This document shows, piece by piece, positions 7,984 through 63,192 of a stretch of DNA of 64,000 nt. Under the pieces are notes generated by a model, which worked only from the letters and a program-made list of their open reading frames with translations, made no database searches and was not told where the DNA came from. A program made the position numbers and the translations under genes. This DNA comes from Lingula anatina. Its lineage: Eukaryota > Animalia > Brachiopoda. How positions within the stretch are numbered: position 1 is the stretch's first letter; each line of letters begins with the position of its first letter. The DNA is taken from NCBI GenBank assembly GCA_051362555.1, contig CM120641.1, forward strand, positions 1,426,001 through 1,490,000. Reading direction: 5' to 3'.

Positions 7984-8242
7984 AGGACTGGATTCCCATA
8001 CCTAGATCGAACTAACAGGATCGATCCATCTCCAATGGTTTTCTCACTAAATTGCTTTCAGCTTAAGCAGCTTAGATGTCTGGCACGCCTACTGAAGCTG
8101 TTAAACGATAGTTCATTACCCCTGGCAGCTTCAGTGGGTGCGACAGACATCTAAGCCGCTAAAGTTGATTGCAATTTAGCGAGAATCCCCTCAGAGTTAG
8201 ATCGATCCACAGTTAGTACGATACGGTTTGGGAATGGGCCCT
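7984..8242. mobile_element. Palindromic MITE family A, copy 2 (Harbinger-like)
   Basis: AGGACTGGATTCCCATACCTAGATCGA...GGTTTGGGAATGGGCCCT. Internal arms GCTTAGATGTCTGGCACGCCTACTGAAGCTG and CAGCTTCAGTGGGTGCGACAGACATCTAAGC. Closely similar copy at 28336-28595. Confidence 0.85.
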
Positions 8243-16100: not shown

Positions 16101-19100
16101 CGCAGTGAGCCTTCGATCTTCAAATTTGTCGATCATAATTTCAATTGCAATCGCACACATCTGTGACAGAGACAAATGTGCACGTGACCTTTCGTTCTGC
16201 CGAGGTGTGTCCCCAGGGTATTGACCTCGAACCACCTATAGTACATTATACTTCAGGGCTTGTTCCACCTCCGTGACTTAAACATTGATTAATACTTGTA
16301 GTCCTTGCTGTAGCCAGGTATATCAATATTCTTGTGGGAATGGCGCAGTAAAATTAAGAAAAATGAATTTATGTCCAGTTTTCGAACTGTTCCACCCTGC
16401 AAAGACGCAGGGGTTGAGGTATCACCTGCTAATTTCAAATATATTCAAATTGATATTAAATATCTGAAGAGGGAAGGAATTACCTGTTTTATGGGGGATT
16501 ACTTGATGTAACACTTTGTGCATACCATTCGTGAAATTCTATTATCTCAGCCCGCTGACTAATGCGCAATACATTGGCATCTTATCCTTGATATAAAAAC
16601 GATGCTTTGCTTAAAACAAACAAGGTTTTCCCTCTAGAAGACGAGGTGAAAGGGACAGAGTAAGGCATTGTTGGTAAAGATAGACTATGGCCGAACCTCT
16701 TCAACAATTTGAAATGTCTCTGCACCCAATCTTCGCCGCGACTGACGGTTTTGACCACAAACTACTCATTAAAATACCATTACAGTTATCTTCACCTTTA
16801 TGAAAAACCCCTTCTAGACTCTGAGGCTGCCCAAGTCCCAAAGCATGAATAATATTCAACCTGGTGGGAGATCTCAGTATTTGTGTATGGTCTAGTAGAG
16901 TTCATTCTTAGTGTTTCTGAAACCAAGATCTTTTTTCGTCTGTTACGGGATATGTTTTGCTTTGTGTAATGACTTTTGAACTGACATTTCCCATGGTCAA
17001 ATACGTCTCCCTGGATGTACAGGGCTGTGATTTAACATGCAAAACTGTGGGTCGAACACGAGTTAACATTCTGGTTGATCCCTAGCCCGGGTTAACCATT
17101 TTCGCAGCACGTGCGAGTAAATTTACAAAGCACACCAACGGAAAATTGTTTCAAATTCGAATTTAACGAAACTGATTTACTCTGTTTATTTTAACAATGA
17201 GATAATGACGTCACTTTAGGTAACAACCGCCTTAGATTTTTGGCGATTAGGTTTTGCTTTTGATGTTAGATTAGTAAATGTGAAGTTAATCGTTGTTTTT
17301 TTCCTGAAATAGCCCCTGTGTGTGACCGACTCCCATTGCCGGTTAAGTAACTGATCACGAGGGTCATTTAAAAAAAAAACGCATATACGACATTTTCCTA
17401 TTGCCAACAAATATGTAAAAATACATTTTAAAGGCATTTATTTGCTAAATGCTCCATTTCGTCACTGATTAACTTTCTTACTTGCCATTCACTAAATGAA
17501 TAATATTGGTGTCACAACAAATAAATAAAAGGGTGAATAAATGAAAAATATACAATCAAACTATGGATGGGTGTTTTTAATTTGATTTATGAAGAATTTC
17601 AAAGTTTCCAATCCAGCGGGGACCGGTGTGTGTGGTGAACGTAGATGGGAGGAATTAAATCAATTAAGACGCCTGAAAGGTTGAGAGACTAAGCGAGCTG
17701 AAATAAGATATAAACAAAAGAATTAAACCGATAAAATAGAAAAAAGAAAAATCGATGACATTTAAATCTAACAGGGAGGTTTTGATCAAATGGGAGGCAT
17801 CGGGTATGTGGCGGTCGTTATTTTTCAATATTAAGATTACCCCTCGCAGCCGCGTTTGTATACAGCACTAACATAACGGACGCAATAAGAGCCAAAAAGT
17901 CGTATAATGGGACGACCACGAAGATGGGTGTTAATAAAATGAAACATTAACCGCGATCGATCTCTACCGCCCAATGTGCGTTCAGAGTCTCTCAGGTGTA
18001 CTTGCTATTGCCCGTTCATCACACAATCTAGGAAATAAAGTTTAAGAGCGCCTCCCTTTATGTCATGGAGGTGAACATTAAACGCTGCGTTGTTTATATT
18101 CGTACAACACTTTATTTTTCCTTTAATTTCCATTGCATGCTATTGCGCTACGATCCTAACCTGAACAATGCCCATGTGTGAGGCAAAATTCGATTTATGA
18201 ATATCGACGGCGACGTAATATGATTGAAAATATAACAGCTTCACCAAGCAGAATTTTTAGAAGTCAAATAATTGATAACTGTTGTCGTAATGCGCTTATT
18301 TTTTCTCGAGCGCTTTTTTTACAAAATTGTTTCAACTAGACCATAAATCAAATAAACGGAAACCGCGTGCGCGCACTGTTTCTTTTATTCGGTTTATTTG
18401 AAGCTCTTTGGGATTGGATCAAAAGGTTGCGTCACCTAGGGTATATAAATATTGTGGCGGTGCTTCAGACGGCGCAAAGGCACGGTCGCAAAAATAATAC
18501 CACGGGTTTACGACAATTTGATGCATATTTTTATGTCTTTACAAGAATGTCAGATAAACTTACACAGCCTTAGTAAATTCACAACCTACCTTCAATTTCC
18601 TCGCCCACTCCAGATTCACGTAGGAACTAATTATTTCTAGCGTAAATGCGATTGAGTTAAAAGACGGCAATTGCTTCCTTGCGCTCTGCCGAGGAGAAAA
18701 TTTTCTATCAAAGTAAATATACGAACCGAGATACACTTTATAGGAATGGAAACGTAACACAAACAACACCAGAATTTTGCTTTTTGTTAACAAATCAAAA
18801 CAATAAAATTCTGAAAATGATAACAGAATGACCTGGTTTGACTTGACTCGGTACAAACCTTAAACGATTACATTCCATAAACGATCTGCAGCAGACAGTC
18901 GCATTGTAAAAAAGTCTTTCTCCTTCGTGTTAAAGATGTATAACTAAACAGTTGCAGGATTGACATGAAGAGTTTGCGTGAATTACAGTAAATAACACAA
19001 GAATCCTAACTTCCCCCCGTGAGCTGAACTGGCAACGTGCTATAGCCAAAACTTGTCCCCTTAATCACGGCCAACCCGCGTGTATCGTGTACACGCGATT

Positions 19101-21939: not shown

Positions 21940-22099
21940 TTCCCATACCTAGATCGATCTAACAGAATCGATCCATCTCCCAGGGGTTTCTCGCTAAATT
22001 GCAATCAACGGCTTAGATGTCTGTCACGCCTACTGAAGCTGCTAGGGGGAAATTAATTATCGTTTAGTTAGATCAATCTAGGTATGGGAACCCAGTCTT
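21940..22099. mobile_element. MITE family A, internally deleted copy 3
   Basis: TTCCCATACCTAGATCGATCTAACAG...GCTTAGATGTCTGTCACGCCTACTGAAGCTG...CTAGGTATGGGAACCCAGTCTT. Confidence 0.75.
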
Positions 22100-28335: not shown

Positions 28336-28595
28336 TAGACTGGGTTTCCATACCTAGGTCGATCTAACAGGATCGATCAATTTCCGAGGGGTTTCTCGCT
28401 AAATTGCTTTCAGAATAAGCGGCTTAGATGTCAGGCACGCCTCCTAAAGCTGCTAAATAATAATCAATTACCTCCTAGCAACTTCAGTAGGCGTGACAGA
28501 CATCTAAGCCACTTATGTTGATTTCAATTTAGCGAGAATCCCCTTGGAGATAGATCGATCCACAGTTAGTACGATAGGGTCTGGGAATGGTCCCT
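28336..28595. mobile_element. Palindromic MITE family A, copy 4
   Basis: Colinear with 7984-8242, including GATCGATCCACAGTTAGTACGATA and the same hairpin arms. Confidence 0.85.
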
Positions 28596-43100: not shown

Positions 43101-44202
43101 CTTTACCGCTTGCATAGGCTGTACCTACCTGTTTCGCAAAGGAAACTCTGCTATTGAACCTGAATGCTTTCTCAAGAGCCTTCCTGTGCTGGCAATTTTT
43201 CTACCCATCAATACCAATTGATTTCACATATAGCAAATACATTCCATTACAGATGCCATTTAAAGGTCGACTTACTTTTAAATTATACCCCCTCATAAGG
43301 TCAGTGGGGCATTGATAATCAGGCATGGGTTAACCTTTCCGGAGCACCTGTCCTCATCGGGTCAGGCCGGCAATTACTATGAATACTTCCAATGGCATCG
43401 TTGTATGGGTTTTTGAGATATCAAAAAGGGCTTTTTGCGATGAATCTACATGTATAATTTAGTGTTTTTTTAAGTATACGGATATTTGACGCCAAATGAA
43501 ATACAGTTGGCGAATTTACCCCCATCCCCAAAGGTGGAAATAGTATTGAGTACTTAAATATTATAGAAGCCCAAACTAAAATAACTTAAGATCTAGGTAT
43601 CATTTTTGCTTTGTACGGCTTAAGCCGAATAAGATTACTGCATTGTTAATTGCGTTAAATGCAAGCTTTGCACAAGGGTATCGATCTCATTGTTGTTTCT
43701 AAAACATACAATGCGTCTTTGGGGGAATGTCACTCCTTATCTATAAAGATAAAAGAAAAAACCCACGTGCCGTCCTCTTGAAAAGGACGAAAATAATTTA
43801 AACAAGACAAAAGCGAATGTCCCATTTATAATTGAATAGAATCATTTGAAGGCATTTTTGGCAACTGACAATTCGACAAATGCTCGGAGAATTACATGTA
43901 GTTGCTAACTGCACTGTCCAGTGTTACATTTCAGAAATTTTGTGTTTAGTATATCACTTTAAAAACAGGACAGTTAATTTTTTTAGTTCTGTTTCCAAAA
44001 AGTACACTTTACTTTTTTCATTAATCAATTGCCAGCATTAATCGTAACATGCATGAACCAAATAATAGTTTTAATTGAAAATTCTAGCTTAATGAACTAC
44101 CAAATATTTACAGTCACCACAATTGTATGCTTAATAAATAATGTTAATAAAGTAAGTATGTAGATATTGTTAAATTTATAGACATGTCAAATTTAAATAT
44201 CA

Positions 44203-44208
44203 TTTATT
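44203..44208 (-). terminator. Candidate polyadenylation signal of the PKS gene
   Basis: AATAAA on the minus strand about 155 nt after the stop codon. The region is very AT-rich, so this could be chance. Confidence 0.4.
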
Positions 44209-44362
44209 TATAGTAATCCCTAACTTTTAATCAAGAATATTATATATTCTAATGAATATAAATAATGTTTAAGTAAAGTTCACAAAAATGTCGCGTTTTT
44301 CGCTGGATACATTTTTCAGATCCAGTGGTTGAGAAAGTGTCGCTGCATTATCATACAAAGTT

Positions 44363-44484
44363 TTAATGTAAAGTCAATAACACAATTTTCCGCAGCTCAT
44401 TCGCCCAGGTTTCTGCGGCGTGATAGTCCTTGGCTCGGAACACGTACTCGCGATCCTTCCCTTCGATATGTAGACTGGACCAGC
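44363..44484 (-). CDS. PKS terminal coding exon (C-terminal half of PH domain)
   Basis: GWSSLHIEGKDREYVFRAKDYHAAETWANELRKIVLLTLH*. Acceptor cttatttccattccAG. Matches the PH beta6-beta7-helix pattern with the conserved Trp. Confidence 0.85.
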
Positions 44485-47400
44485 CTGGAATGGAAATAAG
44501 ATATAATTCCCACTGATGACCGTTTTTATTTGGTTGTTTTATTAAGCTGATAAAGTTGTAAGATGGCATAGCATGTAGCCCGCTGTATGTTTTCAATCAC
44601 TTTTGAAATCATGTGCTTCGTGTCGAACGTAGCTTTTGCATCGACCTGTGCTTCCCTCTGTTAGAGAAAACACGTACTAAATATGGTCGAAAACATATGG
44701 AATGAAGATGTAAAACTCGATTATTATATGAAAATGATTAGGAAACACTGTTTATAATCTTGCAAGTTGGTGTCATACATACTTACCTTTTGACTGAGAA
44801 AATCCGACTTTTTCAATGAGATTTATTGCAATTGATTTGGATTCTTTAGAAATGCCGGTGTCGTCTGCCTTTTCTGACCACACCAGTTGTGGCCAGCCGC
44901 CATTTTGTGAAGAGATCACTCGGACGAAGCGTTTGTGTCGTATACCTTTAGGATTCACCTTAGTGAAAAACATCCCTGGTGAATAACAAAAGATGAAAAT
45001 GCATAAATTATAAAATTGTAAAAGGACTTGAGTAAAAATTTTTTCTACTACGTTCAACGATTTAGTCAGATAATTAAGCTTATCATTCGACAAAAATGTT
45101 TTTTATTACTCTTACTGAGTAAGAAATCCCTGTTAATGTAAATTATAGGTCATGTTTAAAAAAGACTACTATTTCTTTCAATTATGTCCAATGAAATTTA
45201 ATATAACAATTGCCTTGGCAGGGGCATACTTAAATAAGGAGGCATTGACCGTGACACCTACCTGTACGTAATATTTCTGATATGTCAGGCGGAGCATGTG
45301 TCGCGTTACTATACTGGTGGATACCATTGCCGTTGGATGCGTTAGCTGTAGCCGAACTCTGGGACAGAATCTCCACATTACATAAGGCAATAGTTCTTTG
45401 TGGGTCACTTGTGACCAAAGACAGCAAATATTCAAAGTTCGAAACAATTACTCTGGCTTCTTTTTCACTAAGGAGGTCGCTAGAGTAGTCCAGAGCTAGG
45501 TCTATCTTTTCCCTTTTCTTATCATAAAGAATCCGAAGCCTCGTCTCGTGCGTAAGAATAAGTGTGCGCGCATCTTTCATATAAGCTTGCTTTTCCCGGC
45601 TCTCACTCTTGTCAGAGTACTTCTCAAACAAATCCTCCTTGAAGGACGACGCTTCGAGGATGATTTCATGGCGAGTCAAGTAAGGGCGGTCTTCTGGCGC
45701 AACCAAATTTCTGATATTTTCAAATGGGTACAGGCTGTTCTGGATGCACTGTAGGATGCTTTTGGCATTTCTACATATGTAGCTGGCGATGGTTTCATGC
45801 GCATCATCGGGGAAGGAAGCGGGCAATGGAATGAAATTGACGCAGTCGGTGACAGTGCGCAAGAGGCCGGGGACGTGCATGCGCAGATCAACTGGGTTTG
45901 AGACAACGACGGTATCTGCACTGCATAACTTGTGAAGAACCAATTGATGCACACTAGCTAAAACCTGAAAAACGGTGACTTTCTCTCTTTTGCAAAATTC
46001 GCTGAGTTTTTTCACAATTTCTACTGACAAAGGCCGTTCAAGCGTAGAATACTCGCCTGAGATCTTTTCGAGCGGAGTTGATTCCTTTGATAACCGTACG
46101 TCTGACATTTTATCTGGAAGAATGCCGGACCAGAATTCCTGGAGCTCCTTCATTTTGGTCGTTGTCAATACCTTCCCTATTTCCTCTGCAATATTCGGAA
46201 CATCTGCATTCTTGTAAGCTTTCATGGATATACCGCTAGTTTTGGCTGCTACAACAGACATAAGATCCTGAAATATGAGGGGCACTGAAGTCATATCGAG
46301 GGCGCTGTGGTGAAAAACAAACCTCAAATAGCTTCTCGGTTCGGTAAGAACGAAGGCCACTCGCCATGGAGCCTCTCTGATGAGATCGAATGGCGAGCGA
46401 GTGAATGAATTCAGCGAGGGTGTCACTTTAGTTTCAGACCCCTCTAGTGTGAGGAAATCCACAGGAGCATCCTCAGGCAGGAAAGATATTTTTACCTCGT
46501 CTATTCCATCGCCCGTACCAGGAGTCCTGGGAACAAAGACTGCTCTTAGCATTGGGTTGCGGCGTGCAACTTCATTCAAAACTTCTTGCCAGAACCCGGA
46601 TGTTCCAGGGTTTTCTGGGAGTACCAGTGTCATGACCACGTGGGCGCTGAGATCGGATGGATTTGCCCGGTTTCTTTTGTACGAGGAGTACTGCATGAAT
46701 GATGGTGTCAGCAGAGGCCCTGTGGGTGAGGAATTGGCAGACACGGAAATTGGTAAATGAGCAAGTGCTTCTTTCGTTCCCTGTGGCTTGGGCTTGGTTT
46801 CCTGTTTAGCAAAATCGCCAGGGAGTCTCTCGTCTATGAAACTAGCAAGTGCGGCCGCGGTGACATCCTCACTTAGTAACACCACAACTGGTATTGTGAC
46901 CTTCAGCTCCTGGTTCACCCTGTTGATCAGAGACATGGCAATCATGGAATCAATCCCCATGTCTGAGATCGAGGCATCGGCGTGGACGGCTAAAACGTCC
47001 ATGCCAAACAGAGAGGCAACAACACTGCGGGAGTATTCGACCAGTTTTAGGTAGCGCTGCTCCGCACTCAGCGACTTCAGTTCTCCTAACGTCACGGTGC
47101 ACTGACCCTGGTCTGAGTGTGCCTTGTTTTCAGTGGAAGCCGCGCCGCTGTGCAGCTGCATTATGGTGGTGTACCGAGCTCGAATTGGGGAGTTTTCTGC
47201 TCTCTGTAACTCCTGCACCATCTTATTCCAGTCGAAATTGCCATAGAGAACTTGAGTCTCGTTCTTCAATAGCGCGTGGTGGAGACACTTCACAATCTCA
47301 GGTACCGTAAGAGAAGCGTGTCCCATTACCTTAAGAATTCTCTCTGCAGCCTCGTCGCCTTTCAGAAGACCAATCTCTAGAGCGCCCCAGTTTATAACTT

Positions 47401-50400
47401 GCGCTACCATATTCTGCTGTCGTCTGTAGAAAGCAAGGGCGTCCATAAACGAGTTGCCGGCTCCGTAATTTGTTTGACCTCCATTTCCCATCAGTGACGT
47501 CACGGAAGAATGCATGACAAAATAGTCGAGACTGTACTCTCTCGAAATAAGGTGAAGATTCCATGTGCCAATGATCTTGGGGTTAGTTGCTTTCTCAAAC
47601 TTTTCTTGATCAAGATTCAACAAGATGCCATTTTCTAGAACAGCCGCCCCGTGGAATATACCTTTAAGGGGAACGCCGGGCAACGTCTGATCCAATGATC
47701 CGAAAGCTTTCTTCAAAGAGGAGAAATCCATGACGTCAGCCTGAACGCAAATGAACCGCACGCGGTGCTCGTTTTCCAGACGCTTTATGCTGGCAATTTG
47801 TTCACTGTTCGGGGCCCGACGTGACATAGACACGATATAACCTGCTCCGTTCGCTGCCACATATTTGCTGATTTCCCACCCAAGGCCAGTTAGACCACCG
47901 ATAATGAGGTAGCTTGCGTCCCGTCTGAATAAATCATTAGGGCCGGCATACACAACTCTGGACATTGCTTTCTTGTGGAAACGCACAATATCCACAACGT
48001 CATCAGGGCTGTGGTCGTGTTGGTTTTCAATTCTTGCCAGCATGGTGCTGCCGAAATCTATGCGCTTGTGTAGATCTACAGCTTCAAGCTTCATTTCATT
48101 CACCGTGATATTTAGGTTAAGCTGGGGCTTTGATTTTAGTTTCTTGAACCAGCGTCGGAGTGGCGGGATGGTAGCCCGAAGGCTCGGTGGGTTGAACGTG
48201 TCACGGAGGAGACAGGTGTGTATCTGGGTATTCGGTAGGTGACCTGCAAGTGCATTAATGATAGGACCAGAGACCCATTCCTCCACCACAATCAGGGACT
48301 GGGGATTCTGCCAGGAACCAGCCAGACATTTCACATCCAGTAATCTCAGCTCTTCCAGAAGGACAAGGGTTCTATGTTCCAGTTTCTCGCGGTTTTGAAG
48401 ATCTTTTCTGGGGATGATCTCAGCCGCCAGGTTCTTGTAGCCTGCGAATGTTTTAAACAGCTTGCTCAAAGCAGAAGTTTCATGTGTGTGGACAATACCA
48501 ATCGTCCCAAGTTTTGCAGAAACCAAATCGAGAACTTTCCTGACTAAGATAAGCTGAGCAAGCGATGTCTTGGCAAATTGCGGAAGATCTTTAGTGCGGA
48601 ACACGCAGTCCTCTGGAACCTTAAGTATGGACGCTGCTTTTGTGGGATAACATGTCAGCACCGTCTCTCCTACTCGGAAACTGGATTTGGGGCCAGTTTT
48701 TAAAACCTGTCCCTCCACGCTTAAAGTGAGGACATCATGCCCCGGTGCCTCAGCAGTTGGCCAGTAGGAGTAACTTGACTTTAAGTCGGAAACGGTTACT
48801 GGGAACAGCAACGGCTGATGGAGATATACAAGATTGGTCGATACCAACAGGTGCCCTTTCCCTGCGTTGAGATCACTGGAGTCACTTTGATATTGCAGGT
48901 GGACATCTTTTAGTTTCCTACTGTGGCAAGACACGAGCTTCACTTTACTATCTTCCTCGGATATATTTTCCCTGTATTGAATGTAATTGAGGTTTTCAGT
49001 CACTGGCATGATTTCATTGAGGTAGAAAGATCCTGCTGCGACCACAGTTTCGGGAAACTGCTTGACAAATGCTTCTATGTTCTTCAAGGCATTGGATACC
49101 GCTACCAGACTCTCTCTGCCTTCTTGCACGTCGACAAGACTGACTGCGTCATACGTATACTCTCTGAGGAGACTCCGCACCATCCCCCACATCTGAGATC
49201 CGACTGGACTCAACGTGGCATTGGATGATTGGCTTACACACTGGCAATTTCTGGTTAGAACCACAATGGGCACTTTGCAACCGGCTCCGTGAAGCAATTT
49301 GATGAGCTGCCTAAATCCAGAACATGCTATTTGACAAGCGTCGTTGACTTCTTCAGCTGTTGGGAAGATTCCTACGTCCGCTATTCCCCAGGCAAAGACC
49401 ACTCCACGTAATCGTGCTAACTCACTGAATGTATTACTTAGGAGATCTTGCAGTCCGTTTTCATCGCGCACCTTGCCTTTGAAGGCACTACGAGGAATGC
49501 GACATATTGGACCTTCTAGTCTCTCTGCAATATGTTCTGCGACTTTGCAGGGATCGGTAAGTACTAACCAAGAGTCACCCCGTAGTCCCAGATCCGCGTC
49601 ACCAGATGGCGCTACTGCAGAAGCCGCAGGCATCTTATTCCACTGAAGCTGATAAACAAAAGCTTCCTCAACCCGCTTGCTCTCTGAAATGAACTTTGTG
49701 ACGTAGTTATGGGTCTCCACTACCACCTCTCCATCTTGCGTCAACAACATGGCGTTGAAGTGAGCTATCTCGTGTGGTTTATCATGCATCAGTCTGCAGT
49801 AAGCGTACAGCTTCCTCTGAGGCGGGCGCCTGACGGTCAAACTACCAATACCCACGGGAATAGACGGGTCCGTCGCCTCGTTACCTACGTAAAATATTCC
49901 TGGGTTCTGAAAAAGACCATCGAGAATGGCGGGATGGATGGTGGTACTGTACATCTGTTGGCACACAACGTCTGGGAGCTCAATCGAGGAGAGACACTCG
50001 ACCTTGTTTCTAGATGCTCCAGTGATGACTTTCATACTTGGCCCGTACATGAACCCCAGCTTCTCCAGTGCCCCGTATATGACCTCTTCCGTAAGGTGTT
50101 CCGTGCACCTGCTCTTTATTTCCTCTATATCCACTGCCTTGACGCTGTGGATGTCCTCCGTGTAAATGACGCTACCTCGGGCGTGAACTCTTTTGTCTGA
50201 TTTGATGGTGAAATCATTTGAGCAGTGCTCCTGACCTAGGTCGTCTGCAGAGCCGAAATCAACTTCCAGTTTAGCACCCTTCCCGGGAGACAAGATCACA
50301 GGACGAACAAAGTCAACGTGAACCAAGAAGTTTTGCACGGGTTTTTTGGTCGAGGCAACTGCAGCCGTCAACGCAATTTCTGCATAGAAGGCGCCCGGTG

Positions 50401-53400
50401 CGACCACCTTTCCTCCCATATAATGGTCATATATGAACGGTGTCAAATTATTGTCAATGACTGCGGCATATTTAATGCCGGCACTTGGCAACCTCTTTAC
50501 AAAGGGATGGGCAAAATGGGAATCACTGTCAATTCCAGCGCGTTTGAGTTTAGAGGACTCTGGTTCAAAATAGTTCCAAATCCTTTTGAATTGATACTTT
50601 GGAGCATCAACTATAGCAACGTTTTTCATGGAAACGACGTTTTTCCACAGTGGATTGAGTCCCAATGTGTAGATTTTTGCCACTGCTTCACTTAGGCAGC
50701 TCAGCTCGCTACCTTTTTTCATAGACGGTATCACGGGTACGTCGCTTCTGTCTCGCATGTGAGCGCGCAGCACTGGGTGTGGTCCTATTTCAATAACGAT
50801 GTTGTCATGATCGTCCGTAATAGCAGCGTCTACAGCTTTTTTGAACTGAACAGGCTGACGCACGTTTCTTCCCCAGTACTCGGCTGTGACAAAATCTTGG
50901 TCTGACGCCAACTCTCCAGTCACTGTGGAGAATATAGGCACGTCTGGCGTTTTGCCTTTTAATTCCGATAAAGCAGCTTCTACTTTAGACTTGATATCTT
51001 GCATATGGTGACTGTGGTAGGCGCACTCAGTTGGCAGGTCTTGGACATACACACCATTAAAACGGATCGTGTCCCGGAGGGTCACTTTCAGATCTTCTAT
51101 GGCGTCTGCGTCCCCTGAGACAACGCACGATGTCGGGCTGTTAAATACTGCGATGTTGAGTCTACCCGAGTATTTTTCTGTAAGGACTTTCTCCAACCAG
51201 ACCGTTTTGTAATTCATCACAATACACATCCTTCCCCCTTTGGCTTCTGACAGAAACTTGGTGCGATAATAGATGGTTGTAACAGCATCTGGGAGGGAGA
51301 GAGCACCGGCCACGTGGGCGGCTGCCACCTCTCCCACAGACTGCCCAAGAACTGAAGACGGCGTTATACCCCAATGACGCCACAGCGCTGCTAGGGCCAC
51401 CTGGCAAGTGAAAATGGCAAGCGGGGCCACGTCAGCAGACGACAAGTCTTGATTCTCTTTAAATATCTCTAGTATTGACCAGTCGGTCAGGGGCTGCAGT
51501 AGATTGTCAATTTCCTGGACTTTATCTCTGAAGACGCCTTCTTCCCTTATCAAACCCCTACACATGCCTTGCCACTCCATTCCCATGCCACAGAAGACAA
51601 AAATGGCGTTTTTGGGCGCCAGACCCACTACTGGCTGTTCTGGCAAATTGGATACATCCGATTCCAGTTTGCGAATGCATTCCTCGATAGATGTCGCTGT
51701 GGTTGCAAGTCGGTAATTGTAATGAGTTCTCCTACAAGTTGATGTGCGCGCAATATCTCTCAAACTGTATTCCTTATTTGAAACCTTTTCCATGAGGTTT
51801 TTAGTAATCTGTTCAAGGGACCACTGATTTTGAGCTGAAATTGCAATGATTTCTGGGGATTTTTCAAATGCCTCTGTGGCCTCATCTGTCATATCAATGG
51901 ACACATTCTCACTGCCCAAATCCTGACATGTCTCATGACAATTTCTCTCTTGTGTGGCGTTTTCGGTCATCTCACTGTCAGTTTCTTCTTGTTCAATACT
52001 CATAACTGGTTTTTGGATGGCTTCTCTACTAAACTGCATGACCACGGCGTGTGCATTGGTTCCTCCAAAACTAAATGAGTTGACACAGGCAAGACGGGGC
52101 TTTCCCTCGGGCGGTGTCCAGTTCATAACCTCTGTAGGCACTCGCAGTCTGAGCTCGGGAAAATTAATCTTCGGGTTGGCCGGCCGGCCCTTGAAGTGCA
52201 AGGAAGGGACGATCTTCTCGTGTTTCATCATGAGGAGCACTTTAATGAGACCCGCTACACCTGCCGCCGATTCAAGATGGCCGATGTTGGTTTTCACTGA
52301 GCCTATATAACACTCGGATGCTCCCCTCGCCTTTCTGTCCAGAAAGCTGCCAATGGCGTTGCACTCCACGGGGTCGCCAGCTTGGGTCCCTGTCCCTATT
52401 TACGGGACAAGAAATAGCAATGATGATGTTATATGCAAAGCATGTGTATAAAACTCCATTAAATATCAGTTAACATTAATCATGTTCATATAACATTTAA
52501 ACACAAAACCAGTAATTATAATTGTGCTCATATTGCAGTAATACTTTGTACATCATTTCTTCTATTTATTATTACATACATATTATATTCTATTAAGGCT
52601 TGTTAATTTATGAAATTCGTGTAAAATATATGTATATATTTACCATGAGCCTCCACATACTGGATATCATCTGAGTTGACGTGGTACTTTGCAAACACTT
52701 CCTTGAGCAGTGCAGCTTGTTGAGAGCCTGACGGAGCCGTGATAGGGTGAGCCGTGCGGCCATCTTGGTTGACGCCTGTACCAATGATGGCCCATATTTT
52801 GTCTCCATCTTTTAACGCCTAGCGAATTCGACATGAAACATTATCAGATTAAAATAACATCATCAAAATGGGAAGTCGGACAATAGTTTTTCCTCCGTGT
52901 GAGGGTTCCTTGGATGTTTAAAGTAAATAAACCCTATGCAAAACAAAAACTCTGTTTGCATTTCTCCAAAAGATGACTTATGATCATCAGTTTGTTTTAC
53001 GTATATACAGCATTGGTCAAAAAGGTTGTCCCACCCCCATTTCCATGTACTTTTATTTACAAATGATCACCTCGCAGCTGTGAACTGTTAGAAATAGTGC
53101 TTTTTATCACGGATACCGTGTCTAACATGATTAATGGTTAAAAAAATACAAAATAGTGGTGAAAATATACATATTTTATACCATTTAGTAACATTTATAA
53201 GAGGTACCCCCTCAAATCGACTGTTTCACTGTTACTTCTACAGATGTAAAGAAATGTCTATAAAATTGAAAAGGTGCCATCAAATGTCACCAAATTCACA
53301 CACAATTAGCATTAGGGTGTGCTTATTAAAGATCACGTGCCTAACAGCGTGTGCCTCTACCGCGTACTGCAATTATCTCCTGTAGACGGCGCGACAAGCC

Positions 53401-56400
53401 TTCAACACGGGTAACAATTCTGTTATGTGGGATATTGTCCCATTCATCCTAAAGAGCGTGGCGGAATTGGTCAAGATTATTTAGGAATTGGTTCTCCTCT
53501 GCAATGCACATTCTAATTTATGCCACAGGTGCTCAGTAGGATTAATATCAGGACTCAAAGACGGTTGTCCCATCCTCAGAGCCCTGTGTTTCTGCAACAA
53601 ATCGTTTGCCAGACGAGAGCTGTGAGCAAGTGCGTCGTCACAATGAAACCAGTAGTATCCCTGAAGTCACCTCTTGCAAATGGAGTGAGATTTCTGTTGA
53701 GAATGTTACATCAAAATGCCCCTGTTACGTTTTGTTCCAAAAGGAACAATGTACTAATACTATGGGCTTGGGATGTTCTCCAAATGCGGATTGATCTAAC
53801 ACCTCAGGCGATATTATCCTGCACACACCCTTCCAAGAGGCATTTTTTAACATGTCTATGGACCCTCTTTGACCATCGATGGGATACAAGAAATAATTTG
53901 ATTCTGCATCAAAATCAACTTCCTTCCAGTGATGGATGGTCAGGTTCAGGTGCCTGTGGGATCACTGAACGTAGCATTCTCAGCTGATATCTCATTCCAT
54001 CTTCAAGAACTGACTTTGGGGCTAACTTCAGGCTTTATCATGACTGCACACTTGCTCACACCTCTCGCCTGGCAACTGTTTGTTGAAGAAACATAATGGT
54101 CTAAGGATGGAACCACCATCTTTGAGCCCTGATATCAAACTTACTAATCAACTGTGACATGTATTGGAGTGTGCAATGCAAAGGAGAACCAACCCCATAA
54201 AAACGTGGATCAACTCCCCCAACTTGTTTAAGAAGAATGGGACAATATCCCACATAACAGAATTGTAACCCGTGTTGAAGGCTTGTCGCGCCGTCTACAG
54301 GAAATAATTGCAGTACGCGGTAGCCGCACACGCTGTTAGGCATGTGATCTTTAATGAGCACACCCTAATGCTAATTGTGTGTGAATCTGGTGACATTTGA
54401 TGGCGTCTTTTTAATTTTATAGTCATTTCTTTACATCTTTAGAAGTCATAGTGAAACAGTCGATTTGAGGGGGTACCCCTTATAAAATTTACTAAATGGT
54501 ATAAAATATGTATATTTTCACCACTATTTTGTATTTTTTAAACCATTAATCATGTTAGACACGGTATACGTAATAAAAAAACACTATTTCTAACAATTAA
54601 CAGCTGTTAGGTGATCATTTGTAAATAAAAGTACATGGAAATGGGGGTGGGACAACCGTTTTGACCAATGCTGTAAATGTGCCAGAACATTTCGTGTTTT
54701 ATTAGCTTTCAATTAGACACATCCTACATGTAAAGGTACACAAATGTACACAGTGCAGCATTTTACCGATATGAAAAATTTGTTAGACAGATGAATACCA
54801 CTATTACCTCCAATATTAGCGCAAAACAAATCATTCAGATTAAAGTTGCTATGTTACTACAAATATGTATCTCTCTTTGACTAAATATAAAACATGTATA
54901 GCAGTAGTCACTCACGTCTTTAAGCCTTTTCAGCACCACTATGCCACACCCCTCACCACGTGCGTATCCATCCGCCGCGGATGAGAAGGCTTGGGACTGT
55001 CCTGTTGGCGACACCATCCGGGCTTTACTGAGAGGCACGTGCATCGTGGGCATCATGATAGCGTTCACACCGCCACAGAGCGCCATGTTGCACTCACCTG
55101 GGAGATTTGACAATAACAAATTGTTGAAATATGTCGTTTAAGACAATAGATCGCAAATATGGATATTTCGTTTGCATATCCGTTACATATTGTACACACA
55201 TGAGTCTCCTCTAGACAAAAACATACGAGATGATTCAAAGATGTTCTTTAAATATGATCAACACCTAAAAAAATAATCGTATTGGCAGTTGACGGACGTG
55301 TGGGTTTCATTGATTATCCAGAAAAAATTTAAGTTGAAATTACCAAAAATATGTTGAAACTGTCTACCATTCATTTTGTCAACTTTTTCTGTTTGTTACA
55401 CAATACAATTACAATCAAAATTTCATTTTTATTACAAAGCCAACGGAACGAGGACCTCAATATTTAACTTCTGTTAGCTAACCATTTTGAGGGGGGGGGG
55501 GGAGGGGCGTAGGGGGTCCGAAAAATTATAAAAGCAACAAACCATTCTTCAGTGCCTGGCAGCCAAGATGCGTGGCCACCATGGCCGACGAGCACGCGGT
55601 ATCCACGGACATACAGGGACCGAGAAGGTTGAACACGTAGGACACCCTGGCGGCAGTAATGCTGTTTGAGGCTCCGGTTAGGCTGTAGTTGTTCATGGAG
55701 GACACGTCCGTCTCAAACATGTCCGCAAAGTCGTTATTCATGACGCCTGTAAAGGTAGGAATGTAATAGCCAGCTGAAACTTTTTTATGTTTTTCAATGA
55801 AGCGTGTGTTTGATTTCCCTTAATCGTTCCTTTTCATGTAAAGATAACTTTTAGCTTAAAGTATATATCATTACATATAGGACTTTTTCAAGATAGGTAA
55901 TAAACAAGCTTAGCGGATTTTTAAGTTTACAGAATGCAAGGAGAGATACAACAAACTAGCTTTCTATAACATTTTTATGACGCCACGTTCTATTTTTTCT
56001 TTCACTTCGAACCAATAGTCAGCTCAAGCTCATGCACTTGATAATGATTTATTGTATTGCTGGTTCATTCGGCTTTCAAATGCGGTATACCCACGTACAA
56101 AGCCGTATCATTCTGATTCGATGTAGAAGTGTATATAAAGCGTGACAACCAGATACAACGATGATATTAATGTATCTATGAGGGTCATTACAGTAGAACA
56201 AATAAACACACGAGACCTCATCAACTGCTACATGATTTAACTGTTGCGCGATAAGATGTGTACGTCATCATATAGTAGGGCTACACTATCCATTGTAGAT
56301 AACGGATTTCCGAGATACACGTAAAATTATAAGATTATGTACTTATGCCAGTCCCTAACCACCGAGCGAAATTACACAGGCATACACCCTACTTTAGTAT

Positions 56401-58290
56401 TTGTTTAAAAAATGATCTAGAATAATGAAAAAACAATTGAATCAACTGGAAGTTGTCATCCACTGCTTACCAACATACACCCCGGTCCGGCTTCCCTGTA
56501 TATCCGGGGTCGGTATCCCAGCGTTCTCCAGCGCCATGTAACAACAGTCCAGTACAAACCGCTGCTGGGGGTCCATCCTCGCCGCCTCCAGGTCGTTGAC
56601 CCCAAACAGCCGGTTATCCCACTCTATGTGACTCCTGAGGGAATAGTGGATTTTGATGTGAAATTACGCTTTAATACGGTAGATTTGTTAGGTCGATGAT
56701 ACAGCGATAAACGTTATTTGACGTGCAAAAAAAGCAGACTTCTGTGAACAACACGTTTGGGGAGACCGGGGCTAGTTGGACCCCGGGGTAAGTTGCCCCC
56801 CTCCCACCCATCAAGTCTTTTTAATATTGTTACTTTAAGACGCTAAATTGTTTCATTTGGACTCACTGCCGACGCTTTCTTAGCACTATTGGATACGGTC
56901 ATTTTACAAAATGATGTGGTCAATTCTTTTATCCCATAGTTACTTTGTCATAAATTGATGGGGGTCCAACTTACTCCGGGGTCCAACTAGCCCGTCTCCC
57001 CTATTAAAAGCACATCTAACTTCTATCGTTCATTATTTCTATTTAGTGATTGTTTTTTTCTTACCCACCACGTCTGTTCTGGGTATCATTTCCCCATTTC
57101 ACTTTGCTTTTTGGTCTTATATACATATATTTCTAGCAAAAGTATCCTACATGTGTTCTCTGCCTTTCAACAGCACTAGCTTATTGTTTGATCTAAATGG
57201 TGCATCTTCAACCTGCAGTCCTGCCTTTCATACAATTGATTACATTTTATATAATACATCATGAAAGGTGAGAAAATTTAGATTTACTACAAACATTAGC
57301 TATTAACACAGTTATTTTTATTATCTTTATTTATTTATTTATTTGCGAAAACATTTTATGTGTGATTTCAAAGCACTCTGCAGTAAGGACGATGTGATAT
57401 GAAATGGAACTTTGCGCACTACACCAAAAGTGAAAGCTTATGTTTACTACGACCGCTCGCTGTATCAGGTTAAATGAAACGCGAGATGTATCAGGTTTTG
57501 TATCTAATCTAATAATTTGTGTTCCTTATTGTGCGCCAAACGAGCATTTGATCCGTTTTAGCTTCGATGGCCATAGTCAAATATGTATTATGAATTTGAC
57601 AAAAGGAAGAAAGAAATGAAGGAGTTAGATTTTGTGGTGCTTTCAAATAACAGCTACTGATGAGAATGAGCGATGTTACAAATTTCCAAATGAAAAAAAC
57701 TTATCGATAAGGAAAGTGAAAGTGAAAATAAAAGTGGACTGCGAGGCAGGGAGAGGAGGTTGGCGCACACATTCTTCAAATATCGTACTTGTTTCAAACT
57801 TTAACCGTGTACAAGTTTTCTATAAGTTAAGTTTGTGCCCTAACAAAACGATATTCTTAAAAGCACTCTTTTTAAAAACGCTTTGCTTTCCTTGAACAAA
57901 GAAAATAGTACCCATTGACGTGTTCATGGTGTATTTCTACGTCTTTTTACTACAACTTATAACTACGACACTTGCTCATAAATGTATTAGAATTTTTAAC
58001 GAGACTGCGTAGCTGATCTTCCTAAAACTGCTTCTTGCATCAAGTGAGAATGGGGAAGAAGATCAAAATTTCACCTACCCTTTAACAAAGCCAGCCCGAG
58101 TGACGTAGGTTTTGCCAGGGGCATCTGGGTCAGATGAGAAGAAAGCGTCATTATTCCATCTTTCTTTTGGTATATCAATCACGTGGTTCTCTCCATTTTC
58201 AAGAACTTTCCAGAATTCATCAATGTCGTCTGCTCCGGGAAAGCGGCAGCCGACGCCGACGATGGCGATAGCGTCATCGCCTAACATCAT
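44363..58290 (-). CDS. Animal-type iterative type I polyketide synthase with C-terminal NRPS condensation and PH domains (KS-AT-DH-psiKR-ER0-KR-ACP-C-PH), about 2793 aa; join of 58290-58079, 56634-56471, 55746-55543, 55097-54916, 52818-52644, 52395-45262, 44975-44787, 44484-44363
   Basis: Manual splicing. All 7 introns within the CDS are GT-AG with matching phases (2,1,1,0,1,1,1). The summed length of 8382 nt is divisible by 3 and ends in TAA. Motifs: IAIVGVGCRFPG, MDPQQR, DTACSS, EAHGTGT, KTNIGHLESAAG (KS); GQSVG and AYHS (AT); HYMGGKVVAP and HPAILD (DH); GGLTGLG and NYGAGN (KR); GIDSM (ACP); HHSALD (C); C-terminal PH pattern. Confidence 0.93.
44787..44975 (-). CDS. PKS coding exon 7 (N-terminal half of PH domain)
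   Basis: GMFFTKVNPKGIRHKRFVRVISSQNGGWPQLVWSEKADDTGISKESKSIAINLIEKVGFSQSK. Acceptor tttgttattcaccAG, donor G|GTAAGT, phase 1-1. Confidence 0.85.
45262..52395 (-). CDS. PKS coding exon 6, giant 7134-nt exon: KS C-terminus, AT (~50650-51610), DH (~49700-50510), psiKR, dead ER, KR (~47250-47925), ACP (~46825-47050), C domain (~45385-46715)
   Basis: Corresponds to the 2379-aa track ORF, extended to acceptor AG|GG ACA GGG ACC (completing HGTGT). Donor ACA G|GTAGGT at 45261. Domain boundaries are approximate. Confidence 0.95.
52644..52818 (-). CDS. PKS coding exon 5 (KS, first catalytic His)
   Basis: ALKDGDKIWAIIGTGVNQDGRTAHPITAPSGSQQAALLKEVFAKYHVNSDDIQYVEAH, in a different frame from the track ORF at 52608-52808. 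Donor G|GTAAAT. Confidence 0.92.
53008..54673. mobile_element. Foldback non-autonomous Tc1 (DD34E) derivative in a PKS intron
   Basis: TA|CAGCATTGGTCAAAA...TTTTGACCAATGCTG|TA termini with ~700-bp inverted arms. The left arm on the minus strand encodes HCDDALAH...SPDINPTEHLW with 34 residues between D and E. The right arm encodes EEWDNIPHNRIVTRVEGLSRRLQEIIAVRG, a Tc1-like C-terminus. Confidence 0.88.
54916..55097 (-). CDS. PKS coding exon 4 (KS)
   Basis: ECNMALCGGVN...ADGYARGEGCGIVVLKRLKD. Acceptor tctcccAG, donor GAC|GTGAGT. Confidence 0.92.
55543..55746 (-). CDS. PKS coding exon 3 (KS active-site Cys)
   Basis: VMNNDFAD...GPCMSVDTACSSAMVATHLGCQALKN. Acceptor cctttacAG, donor G|GTTTGT. Confidence 0.92.
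56471..56634 (-). CDS. PKS coding exon 2 (KS; absent from the ORF track)
   Basis: Translates as SHIEWDNRLFGVNDLEAARMDPQQRFVLDCCYMALENAGIPTPDIQGSRTGVYV. Acceptor ttccctcAG, donor G|GTAAGC. Confidence 0.92.
56759..57001. mobile_element. MITE in a PKS intron
   Basis: TIRs GGGGAGACCGGGGCTAGTTGGACCCCGGGGTAAGTTG and CAACTTACTCCGGGGTCCAACTAGCCCGTCTCCCC. Confidence 0.8.
58079..58290 (-). CDS. PKS coding exon 1 (KS N-terminus)
   Basis: MMLGDDAIAIVGVGCRFPGADDIDEFWKVLENGENHV...AGFVK. Acceptor catccAG just upstream of the ATG. Donor GG|GTAGGT at 58078. Confidence 0.92.
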
Positions 58291-58525
58291 AAACTACTGG
58301 ATGATGAAAAATAATAAAACTAAATAAAAGAGTCAGAATATCTAAAATATTTGAAAAAGAGTCAGAGATGCAAAAAATGAAAATGTAAGCGGAACAAACG
58401 AAACCATTTAATTATGAGTACTGGAAAAAAACATCTAATTATATTTAGAAAAATATCTGAGATGTTCAAACAAACAAGTTTACAAAATATTAAGAATTCT
58501 TTTGAGTATTCAGTTTGAACCTTAC

Positions 58526-59909: not shown

Positions 59910-60821
59910 CTATAATCCAATCGCGAGAAAAATATCAAATTCAACACCTAGATTCGTGTGTTCTATTAAAGGCACCCAGTTGTTAAACCTCAGAGCAATC
60001 ACACTTTTCAAGAACTTTCTGCTTGCTTCTGACAACGAGTCATCGGACATCAAAGTTCTGTCAATTTTGGCACAAGCCACGTCGATCGTGTCTATGAACT
60101 CGTCTTGCTCCAGCTTTCCCCCTACACTGATGAGCATACTGGCAACAGTCTTGATAAGATAGTCCATTGGGTCGTCTAGCAGGCACTCTATGACTTCCAT
60201 TATACTGTCTGCTAACACCAGTCCCTTCGCATACATCCGGGCAATGAAGATACCCAAATGTTTAATTTTCGTCGTCAATGAAGCTATTTGTTCAGCTGTT
60301 CTTTCCATTGAGGTCTCCAATCGGATCTGAGACGACCGGGAGTGTGAAGAGTAATCCTTCGTCGACAAACGGGCATACGAATTCAGTTTGCTCTGGTATA
60401 AGTCCAACGTAGAGTGAAAGTCCTGTTCGATTTTGTTTACAATGGCGTGGGTAATTCGCAGCTGAGCCATCTTTCCTCCTGAAGTGGGATTTGTGAATAC
60501 TCGCATCTCAGTCTGGTAAATACTGGCTATAAGTTGTACAACTGGGCCTCCGATTAAGACATCTGATTTGACATTTTGTAATATCAAATATCCCAGAACG
60601 TCTATTTCTGTACGAGTGCACACTTTCTCGAAAACAACCTTAGTGAATTGTTTTGTGATTTCCTTCATTGCGCTCTTATTTGGCTTGAAAGGGTCTATCT
60701 TTTTCGAAACAAGATCTAGAATCTTCTGGATATCCTTTCCAAGGGGCGAATTCTTTGCCATCGCCTCCACAAAGCTGTCTTGGTCAACTCCAAGGCGACT
60801 GTCAGACTCTGAGAAATTCAT
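59910..60821 (-). CDS. Intronless 303-aa MIF4G-domain protein, divergent eIF4G middle-domain-like
   Basis: The C-terminal half (HLGIFIARMYAKGLVLADSIMEVIECLL...IKTVASMLISVGGKLE...SRKFLKSVIALRFNNWVP) follows the eIF4G MIF4G pattern as I recall it (GNIKFIGELFKLKML...LECLCRLLTTIGKDLD...RIRFMLQDVLDLR..NWVP). AIVNKIEQDF resembles LLLNRCQKEF. The 912-nt ORF is uninterrupted in AT-rich DNA. Confidence 0.8.
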   Translation of the reverse strand: MNFSESDSRLGVDQDSFVEAMAKNSPLGKDIQKILDLVSKKIDPFKPNKSAMKEITKQFTKVVFEKVCTRTEIDVLGYLILQNVKSDVLIGGPVVQLIASIYQTEMRVFTNPTSGGKMAQLRITHAIVNKIEQDFHSTLDLYQSKLNSYARLSTKDYSSHSRSSQIRLETSMERTAEQIASLTTKIKHLGIFIARMYAKGLVLADSIMEVIECLLDDPMDYLIKTVASMLISVGGKLEQDEFIDTIDVACAKIDRTLMSDDSLSEASRKFLKSVIALRFNNWVPLIEHTNLGVEFDIFLAIGL

Positions 60822-60908
60822 TTTCCGTGTAAAAAAATATTAGACATTTAACCTTATTATGATGAAAGATTATTTAACTCACGACAAAGTCCGCGTTACA
60901 CAGCTAGC

Positions 60909-60990
60909 TACGTCAGTAAACGTCATTGCGACGCGATTCTGACGTCAACGGACACAGTACGTGGCGCCACCTTTTTCACACGTCACTAAC
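60909..60990. promoter_or_regulatory. Cluster of CRE/ATF-type sites upstream of the MIF4G gene
   Basis: Perfect TGACGTCA at 60940-60947 plus ACGTCA half-sites near 60910, 60920 and 60981. All lie about 90-170 nt upstream of the ATG in a CpG-rich patch. Confidence 0.5.
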
Positions 60991-61761: not shown

Positions 61762-63192
61762 CGTAACATGAAAATCTGACTCCCCCCCATGAAAATTTGA
61801 CTCCCCCTCCACAAAACTTCATAAATCTTATTTTATTTGAGTATATGACTGTGATCTTGTAGAATGTAAAATGGAGGATACATTGGCACTTTTTTCTAGT
61901 TTGCATGTGTATATTTTCATGAAAAAAAAAGAAAATTAAAAATGTGCACTTAACCGCCCATTGTCTCCCCTATGAAGAAGCTATTTATTTGATATTGGAT
62001 GATCATTTCTACATCTTTCCTTAAAATTAACTTTATGAAGATTATATTGGAAATATTTGAAAGTTTGATGGTGAACTATTGGGTGAAAAAACTAAAAAAA
62101 AAACATGAAAAATTAGAAAATTAAAAATGTTTATTTTATCACCCAATAACTCCCCTATGAAAAAGCTATCTATTTAATATTTGATGATCATTTCAACACC
62201 TTTCCTTAACTTTTACTTTATGAAGATAATATTGGAAATATTTGAAAGTTTGACGATAAAATATTGGGTGAAAAAAACAAACAAACAAAAAAAAACATGA
62301 AAAATAAGAAAATTAAAAATGTGCATTTTATCACCCAAAACTCCCCTTTGAAAAAGCTATCTATTTAATATTTGATGATCATTTCAACACCTTTCCTTTT
62401 AGGGTACTTTATGTGAAATATATTGGAAATATTTAAAAGTTTGATGATAAAATAGTGAGTGAAAGAATGAAAAAGAAATCATGAAAATCTTCATTTTTAT
62501 ACCCATGAAATTTGGACTCCCATGAAGAAAAGGACCTATTTTATATTCAGTCACCATACCATTGTTTTCCACATAGTTTGCACAAAGATGTACATTTTTT
62601 TATTATTTGAAAGTTTGGTGATGAAAATTTTGGTGAATATTTTTAAAACAATTATTTATCTTACTACCTGTAGGTTTTGCACTTCCATGTCAAAACGCTA
62701 CATTTTTAACTGAAGAAATTGGCCCCATCGCCTTTTTACTGAATTCTTCTTATATAGCATACCCAGTAATTTACCATTCAAACTTTCAAATATTTCCAAT
62801 ATATTCTTCATAAAGGATCCTTAAAGGAAAGATGTCAGAATGATCATCAAATATCAAATAGATAGCTTTTTCATAGGGGAGTCATTGGGTGTTAGAATAA
62901 TAAATCCTTAATTTTTTCTTATTTTTTAATGTGTTTTTTTCCACCCAATTTTTTACCATCAAACTTTCAAGTACTTCCAATATAATCTTCATAAAGTAAC
63001 CTAAAAGGAAAGATGTTGAAATGCCCACCTGCAAACTAACAAAAAGTGCCAATGTGTCCTCCATTATGCATACTGCAAGATCATAGTCATTTACTCAAAT
63101 TAAGTGAGATTTATGAACGTTTTTTTTTTTTTTTTGGGGGGGGGGGGGGGGGAGTCAAAATTTCATTGGGGGAGTCAGATTTTCATGGTACA
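61762..63192. mobile_element. TIR element nested in the piggyBac (Ginger-like, CCGG target duplication)
   Basis: CCGG|CGTAACATGAAAATCTGACTCCCCC...GGGGGAGTCAGATTTTCATGGTACA|CCGG. Removing it restores the host subterminal repeat. The family assignment rests on recalled TGT..ACA termini and 4-bp TSD and is less certain than the insertion itself. Confidence 0.8.
61915..62540 (+). repeat. ~190-bp tandem repeat (about 3 copies), with inverted copies at ~62770-63020
   Basis: The unit start CTCCCCT(A/T)TGAA(G/A)AAGCTAT recurs at 61965, 62150 and 62341. Its reverse complement ATAGCTTTTTCATAGGGGAG occurs near 62862-62881. Confidence 0.85.

Follow-up and report, generated by a model that had tools for sequence, protein, structure and literature searches.

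A Lingula anatina polyketide synthase gene with a terminal condensation domain and a predicted PH-domain tail

How chains are released from animal polyketide synthases (PKSs) that lack a thioesterase (TE), and where in the cell such enzymes work, are both stated as unknown in published accounts (PMC10764717; PMC6334511). A gene of the brachiopod Lingula anatina raises both questions in a single protein. It lies on the minus strand of a stretch of 64,000 nucleotides (GCA_051362555.1, contig CM120641.1, positions 1,426,001 to 1,490,000), hereafter the window, whose first letter is position 1 of all coordinates given here. The gene encodes an animal-type PKS followed by a condensation (C) domain of the kind known from nonribosomal peptide synthetases (NRPSs) and by a predicted pleckstrin homology (PH) domain. 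The PKS-C layout is already known in animals; only the PH tail is new. Because this protein unites a PH tail with an intact C motif, it makes both release and localization testable.

Gene model and domain composition

The locus holds a real and intact animal gene. Its reading frame runs through eight exons of 8382 nt (2793 amino acids plus stop) with no internal stops, and all seven introns of the spliced model have GT-AG ends, which bears out the cleanly spliced gene of a preliminary description made from the sequence alone. G+C content is 0.42 to 0.59 in the exons versus 0.24 to 0.39 in the introns, and exons 1 to 5 cover successive parts of the KS profile in consecutive register (Pfam). Within 45500-43600, the exon-7 donor fits the consensus better than any other of the 98 GT sites, and the exon-6 donor ties for second; of 44 YAG sites, the acceptors of exons 7 and 8 rank first and third, each in a tie. 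At the 5' end, an acceptor-like AG stands immediately before two tandem ATGs (58294-58297, minus strand), and a TATA-like stretch lies at ~58578, 290 nt upstream; a short noncoding first exon upstream of the ATGs is possible.

The exon-6 open reading frame (ORF) passes the curated Pfam cut-offs for KS_C, AT (8e-59), DH, KR (5e-51), PP-binding, and Condensation (4e-34), the last being the match that was sought in follow-up of the preliminary description. The KS catalytic residues are in place (Cys174/His312/His352), and the catalytic motifs claimed earlier for KS (Cys-His-His), DH, KR, ACP, and C were all located (Table 1). The core is a single KS-AT-DH-KR-ACP module with intact catalytic residues, as in animal iterative type I PKSs. 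We take its AT to be malonyl-type from general motif rules. The KS-AT linker (~52000-51860, minus strand) contains an acidic stretch, with ~40 residues more than in the scallop relative introduced below. An inactive ER between DH and KR, as first proposed, is less firmly placed. No active ER was found in this region by Pfam or with a 6-sequence ER profile; hhalign produced an alignment at P 0.021 over only 32 columns, which lends weak support to a remnant of a dead ER.

The C domain keeps its HHxxxD motif, with Met in place of the final Gly of HHxxxDG. Sequence comparison pairs it with solved C domains (1.4e-12), a structural model based on an 8-row alignment shows the complete two-lobed C fold (pLDDT 67.8), and by fold it matches the C domains of LgrA, Txo, and SrfA-C (Foldseek E values to 3e-27, for LgrA C). 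Pfam reported no adenylation or peptidyl-carrier domain after C within the gene, and no TE or reductase anywhere in it. Likewise, none of 109 candidate peptides from the rest of the window matched an adenylation or carrier domain, a scan that short exons would escape.

A PH-fold tail shared with a scallop

The case for a PH domain at the C terminus is built on comparison with a protein of the scallop Argopecten irradians (XP_069131978.1; P0208) and one of the chiton Liolophura sinensis (XP_064600727.1; P0199). Structural models show a PH fold for the scallop tail: single-sequence folding gives seven PH strands and a C-terminal helix (pLDDT 83.6), the Foldseek rows listed are all PH-fold proteins (TM 0.74 to the DAPP1 PH domain, no row at E <= 0.001), and comparison with PH domains by VIA gave Z 13.8 and an rmsd of 1.7 over 91 residues. 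Annotation misses this domain because its PF00169 score is below threshold (14.5 bits versus a cut-off of 25.1). A profile built solely from the scallop and chiton tails places the exon-8 frame at the top of 2195 six-frame peptides of the window and aligns with the spliced tail over positions 4-96 of 100. None of 2000 shuffles scored as high as exon 8 does against the scallop tail, and residues 5-2786 of the spliced model form one BLAST alignment with scallop residues 5-2644, at 33% identity and extending into exon 8. Because of this profile rank, these shuffles, and the full-length alignment, the PH tail stands above chance, and exons 7 and 8 likely encode a PH domain whose fold is carried over from the scallop tail by alignment.

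Some observations weigh against a PH domain here. Scanned apart, neither exon reaches a Pfam cut-off: the sole Pfam match of exon 8 is PF00169 (E 0.097; 13.6 bits against the 25.1 cut-off; profile positions 77-103 of 105), and the exon-7 ORF gives PH_31 at E 0.17. Exon 7 alone is not significantly similar to the scallop tail (its score was reached in 1481 of 2000 shuffles), and the window and scallop PH regions are only ~22% identical. Exon 7 alone also falls outside the top 8 with the scallop and chiton tail profile, sequence searches of the PDB with exon 7, exon 8, and the scallop tail returned nothing significant, and a word-index search of longer proteins with exon 7 confirmed 0 of 8 candidates. 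The Atlas placed the tail in PH clusters at 0.81 or less, which we treat as a lead only.

The PH-pattern tail of the preliminary description therefore stands on its scallop alignment and fold, not on a Pfam match above the cut-off by either exon, and its overall architecture (KS-AT-DH-KR-ACP-C with PH) held up as well, with a C domain that passes Pfam and a sub-threshold PH domain shared with the scallop. We consider a PKS-C architecture that includes PH very probable, and a PH-fold tail is conserved in at least one other species, the scallop. The chiton model carries, in the same place, a PH pattern limited to its first half. Among the three relatives found, the whole PH domain is present in one (scallop) and its first half in one (chiton); the third is an unnamed ORF on an 8-kb contig whose end lies, by eye, close to this exon boundary and is uninformative on PH. 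Below the Pfam threshold and unnamed in two database models, such tails may hide in other invertebrate PKSs.

The chiton model leaves the PH pattern halfway, as if its last exon were mispredicted, and has no KS-AT. As an alternative origin of the tail, a separate gene made of the PH exons was considered and ruled out: exon 8 ends in a stop, the gap between exons 6 and 7 is 286 nt, and the scallop protein carries the same fusion.

The canonical phosphoinositide-binding PH motif is KXn(K/R)XR at beta1-beta2 (PMC4975593). Phosphoinositide docking, as proposed in the preliminary description, is weakened by comparison with this motif. In the window, Lys2696 and Arg2706 are present with His at the (K/R) place, which leaves the strict motif incomplete; the scallop and chiton tails lack its Arg, and the PH net charge is +6 in the window versus -1 in the scallop. 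Because the basic motif is absent in scallop and chiton, phosphoinositide binding is, on these sequences, not a conserved trait of the tail, and a phosphoinositide is no more likely to be its target than a protein partner. Lipid binding by the window copy is possible from its residues, and canonical phosphoinositide binding seems rather unlikely. A more general role of the PH domain in targeting or localization is probable.

Relatives among animal polyketide synthases

We compared the C domain with 1.84 billion representatives and inspected the best 150 of 13,746 matches, 3 of which contain a single C stretch. All three have the order (KS-AT-)DH-KR-ACP-C: the scallop protein, the chiton protein, and the unnamed ORF. 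Animal-type PKS-C proteins thus number at least three, and more may rank below the best 150. The scallop protein has the same domains over its full length, a PH-fold tail, and the catalytic His; it differs in being named 'phenolphthiocerol/phthiocerol polyketide synthase subunit C-like', with no mention of PH, and in having a PH domain without the basic motif. The chiton entry shares DH-KR-ACP-C and the first half of the PH pattern but is an 'uncharacterized protein' whose model has neither KS-AT nor the second PH half. Pfam reports no PH domain in either whole protein. Identity to the scallop protein declines from KS (60%), KR (49%), and AT (44%) to C (26%) and PH (22%), and the KS is 51% identical to that of an icefish PKS.

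In a KS-AT tree that contained four animal rows and 38 bacterial rows kept of 119 matching, with no FAS, AFPK, or fungal PKS among them, the window, the scallop, the unnamed animal-type ORF, and the icefish PKS group together against the 38 bacterial rows (SH-aLRT 100), in keeping with the kinship to animal PKSs that had been suggested earlier. In the C-domain tree, a separate long-branched clade (support 100) outside the bacterial groups unites the four animal C domains. They could not be assigned to a C subtype: this long branch lies outside the LCL, DCL, and E groups, and the context labels are rough. Word-index searches were crowded by bacterial proteins and are uninformative on the spread of PKS-C-PH: the best 120 of 164 matches to the C region are all NRPS-type (18-27% identity), and the best 120 of 7835 matches to KS-AT include 1 named animal protein. 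A metagenome scan gave 99 pattern matches, 0 of them confirmed.

Bacterial contamination or recent transfer was also considered and is ruled out by the spliceosomal introns shared with molluscs and by the animal clade. The icefish PKS model (P0346) has a second KS-AT copy after its ACP and probably represents two tandem genes fused.

The closest published counterparts are found in a mollusc PKS clade ('clade 6') with members both with and without C domains and with introns concentrated N-terminally (Lin et al. 2024 Nat Commun, PMC10764717). One clade-6 example in Data-11 has the order KS-AT-DH-KR-ACP-C, ends just after C, and is, by eye, visibly like the window protein end to end. Domain order and the motifs FCGMG, GQSVG, and AYHS are common to clade 6 and the window. 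Exon layout agrees closely: Siphonaria and Aplysia genes have exons of 161/204/182/175 nt and then ~6800 nt, compared with 164/204/182/175 and then 7134 nt in the window. In both, introns break up the KS part and are followed by one ~7-kb exon, and the window has two 3' introns besides. Judged by its architecture and exon layout, the gene probably belongs to this mollusc-type PKS-C group. The clade-6 examples differ in having no PH tail and no catalytic His in their C motif, and no product is reported for them. A search of 12 of the 18 supplement files for a PH domain and four short motifs had no match, though line breaks can hide motifs.

Other described systems share parts of this layout. 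Medaka OlPKS (PMC4604110) and budgerigar MuPKS and duck ApPKS (PMC6334511) have the same KS-AT-DH-(inactive ER)-KR-ACP core but end at the ACP, with neither C nor PH. Hojo et al. 2015 (PMC4604110 Table 2) give lancelet and Saccoglossus (acorn worm) PKSs with C or C-AMP; compared by description, these place C after the PKS as here but have an adenylation domain after it or a TE before it, with no PH listed. Fungal LovB, also compared by description, is an iterative PKS with a dead ER and a terminal C like the window protein but has an active methyltransferase, an ER acting in trans, and no PH (PMC7870829). LovB had been offered as the precedent for the terminal C, a place that falls instead to the animal PKS-C proteins already in print. 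OaaC, a bacterial stand-alone C domain on a separate protein and likewise compared by description, transfers an acyl chain from an ACP to a free amine (PMC13310621). As to the novelty claimed in the preliminary description, we found no published PKS-C-PH, in a search largely outside subscription journals, and passages of PMC11869996, PMC12833800, PMC10951248, and PMC10531068 add nothing on it; PKS-C itself has already appeared (PMC10764717; PMC4604110 Table 2).

Transcription

Of nine RNA runs listed under the same species label, eight were mapped, on 43600-52950 only and with 6-30% of each run's reads. Run X9 contributed 19 reads, all on exon 6 within 46720-52335; run X8 contributed 4 that cover a conserved KS motif and have a loose end, and run X6 contributed 2. 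The lack of reads from the remaining five runs counts as no test. The gene, or a near copy of it, is weakly transcribed. Of the differences listed between the X9 reads and the window, 9 of 13 fall at third codon positions; a different allele or a close paralogue, from which these reads may derive, would give such a bias. At 52305, three X8 reads follow the conserved KS motif before diverging from the window; the X8 reads probably come from a second expressed PKS paralogue in this species.

Three results count against transcription of the full model as drawn. None of the 19 X9 reads is >=99% alike to the window, 0 reads from the 8 runs fall on exons 7-8 or across any junction, and the exon-6 frame, if donor 45261 is unused, reaches a stop at 45230 that is followed by ATTAAA (45202) and AATAAA (45107). 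These polyadenylation-like hexamers make a short isoform possible. The splicing of exons 6, 7, and 8 is a prediction that we consider likely from the splice sites, neither shown nor excluded by the mapped runs.

Proposed function and alternative explanations

We tentatively propose that the gene encodes a clade-6-type iterative PKS-C with a PH tail, which would build a polyene chain and transfer it through C to an acceptor while PH positions the enzyme. The AT would load malonyl-CoA; KS, KR, and DH would then cycle while a presumably dead ER leaves double bonds in place, giving a polyene acyl chain on the ACP. Budgerigar MuPKS, with its inactive ER, makes polyenes (PMC6334511), and because of the domain set and the precedent of MuPKS and ApPKS (PMC6334511), a polyene-type chain is the predicted product by analogy, which we find reasonably likely. 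C would hand the chain to a free amine or alcohol acceptor in a release step like that of stand-alone OaaC. As there is no TE, reductase, or adenylation domain, C is the only release candidate, and we lean slightly toward its predicted catalytic role. PH would position the enzyme on a membrane or a partner protein. Roles in pigment, signal-lipid formation, or biomineralization cannot be told apart on present sequence data, and the papers listed by a search for a link between shells and polyenes included none of relevance. A PKS that carries a eukaryotic targeting module could, in addition, supply a part for enzyme engineering.

A broader version of this proposal, which we regard as quite unlikely, makes the gene one of an old, overlooked invertebrate PKS-C-PH subfamily that spans at least bivalves and chitons; PH would recruit the synthase to a membrane or organelle, and C would acylate a membrane-resident acceptor with a polyene. 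If true, polyketide synthesis would be placed and switched by cell signaling, and candidate acceptors would be lipid head groups, long-chain bases, or protein amines.

Three rival explanations bear on release, transcript, and partner. In fungal LovB, the C domain is noncatalytic and serves a structural or docking role. The C domain of the window protein could likewise be a noncatalytic structural or docking unit, with hydrolysis or a trans-acting enzyme freeing the chain and with C and PH together making up a partner-binding tail, an explanation that we judge unlikely. Evidence against a catalytic C comes from its relatives: the catalytic (second) His is lost in 4 of 6 inspected (the chiton, P0141, the Data-11 example, and Siphonaria 6-2) that retain the whole C domain, the Gly of HHxxxDG is replaced in all, and branches in the C-domain tree are long. 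Vertebrate relatives, moreover, function without a release domain (PMC4604110 Table 2; PMC6334511). Set against this are the intact HHxxxD of the window, the catalytic His and Asp kept in the scallop, and the complete C fold. The catalytic His is thus kept in both proteins that have a whole PH domain, those of the window and the scallop, too small a number for a correlation.

The main transcript might instead stop in intron 6 at 45230, 10 codons beyond the donor, leaving an ordinary PKS-C whose PH exons belong to a minor isoform or a decaying tail. The downstream hexamers and the empty exons 7-8 agree with this, as do the published relatives, whose clade-6 examples end right after C, one of them from a 9341-nt transcript contig (PMC10764717). 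However, the donors and acceptors at exons 6 to 8 are near perfect, the frames are open, exon 8 looks coding (third-position G+C 0.58 versus an intron G+C of 0.29-0.35), and the same domain stands in the same place in the scallop and, in part, in the chiton. Hexamers of this kind are common in A+T-rich introns, and read depth is too low to decide; we hold a truncated main transcript to be improbable. Similarly improbable in our view is a split PKS-NRPS, in which C would join the polyketide to an amino acid held on a separate adenylation-carrier protein that PH helps to recruit, the ancestral adenylation domain having been lost or replaced. The lancelet and Saccoglossus PKSs given as ...ACP-C-AMP (PMC4604110 Table 2) fit such a history, and an elongation C after an adenylation-peptidyl carrier pair makes up 86 of the 100 best bacterial matches, close to its overall share (805 of 1031). 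The 109 window peptides, with the reservation about short exons given above, yielded no such partner, and the animal C domains nest in no bacterial subtype. Transfer of a polyene by C to an acceptor remains our tentative preference.

Feature coordinates and surrounding sequence

Table 1. Coordinates of the exons, protein domains, and intronic element in the window
Feature	Position	Strand	Remarks
Exon 1, start of KS	58079..58290	-	212 nt coding; ketoacyl-synt 3e-16, profile 2-66
Exon 2, KS	56471..56634	-	164 nt; profile 70-120
Exon 3, KS with catalytic Cys174	55543..55746	-	204 nt; length as in Siphonaria and Aplysia clade-6 genes
Exon 4, KS	54916..55097	-	182 nt; KS profile match
Long terminal inverted repeat (TIR) DNA-transposon remnant, noncoding, inside intron 4, outside the protein	53003..54678	.	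~660-nt TIRs
Exon 5, KS to first catalytic His	52644..52818	-	175 nt; KS profile match
Exon 6: KS end, AT, DH, degenerate psi-KR/ER region, KR, ACP, C	45262..52395	-	7134 nt
AT domain	50705..51604	-	Pfam 8e-59; motifs GQSVG, FCGMG, AYHS
DH domain	49685..50485	-	His and Asp motifs HxxxGxxxxP, HPAILD
Probable ER remnant, no recognizable NADPH motif	47960..48890	-	approximate limits; weak evidence
KR domain	47378..47917	-	GGLTGLG, YGAGN; Lys, Ser, Tyr, Asn present; LDD motif is LEN
ACP	46835..47029	-	GIDS; 1.5e-11
Condensation domain	45386..46700	-	HHSALD; catalytic His (His2342) codon 46309-46307
Exon 7, predicted first part of PH; basic beta1-beta2 stretch	44787..44975	-	189 nt; no RNA read
Exon 8, predicted last PH strands and C-terminal helix, conserved Trp	44363..44484	-	122 nt; stop 44365-44363; no RNA read

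The element in intron 4 has TIRs that are 78-93% alike, TA flanking both ends, and a 156-aa ORF without a Pfam match; it is presumably a Tc1/mariner-like remnant. Upstream of the gene by 1.6 kb and on the same strand, an uninterrupted ORF of 309 aa (59910-60839, minus) shows a weak MIF4G match (E 0.0046). Only 2 of the 109 flanking peptides match Pfam, both weakly: CLN6 at 18563-18859 (minus; E 0.0025) and H2TH at 60852-60986 (plus; E 0.0011). The window also contains a ~185-nt tandem repeat with inverted copies facing (61813-63122) and three copies of a palindromic repeat resembling a miniature inverted-repeat transposable element (7986-8242, 21940-22067, and 28338-28595).

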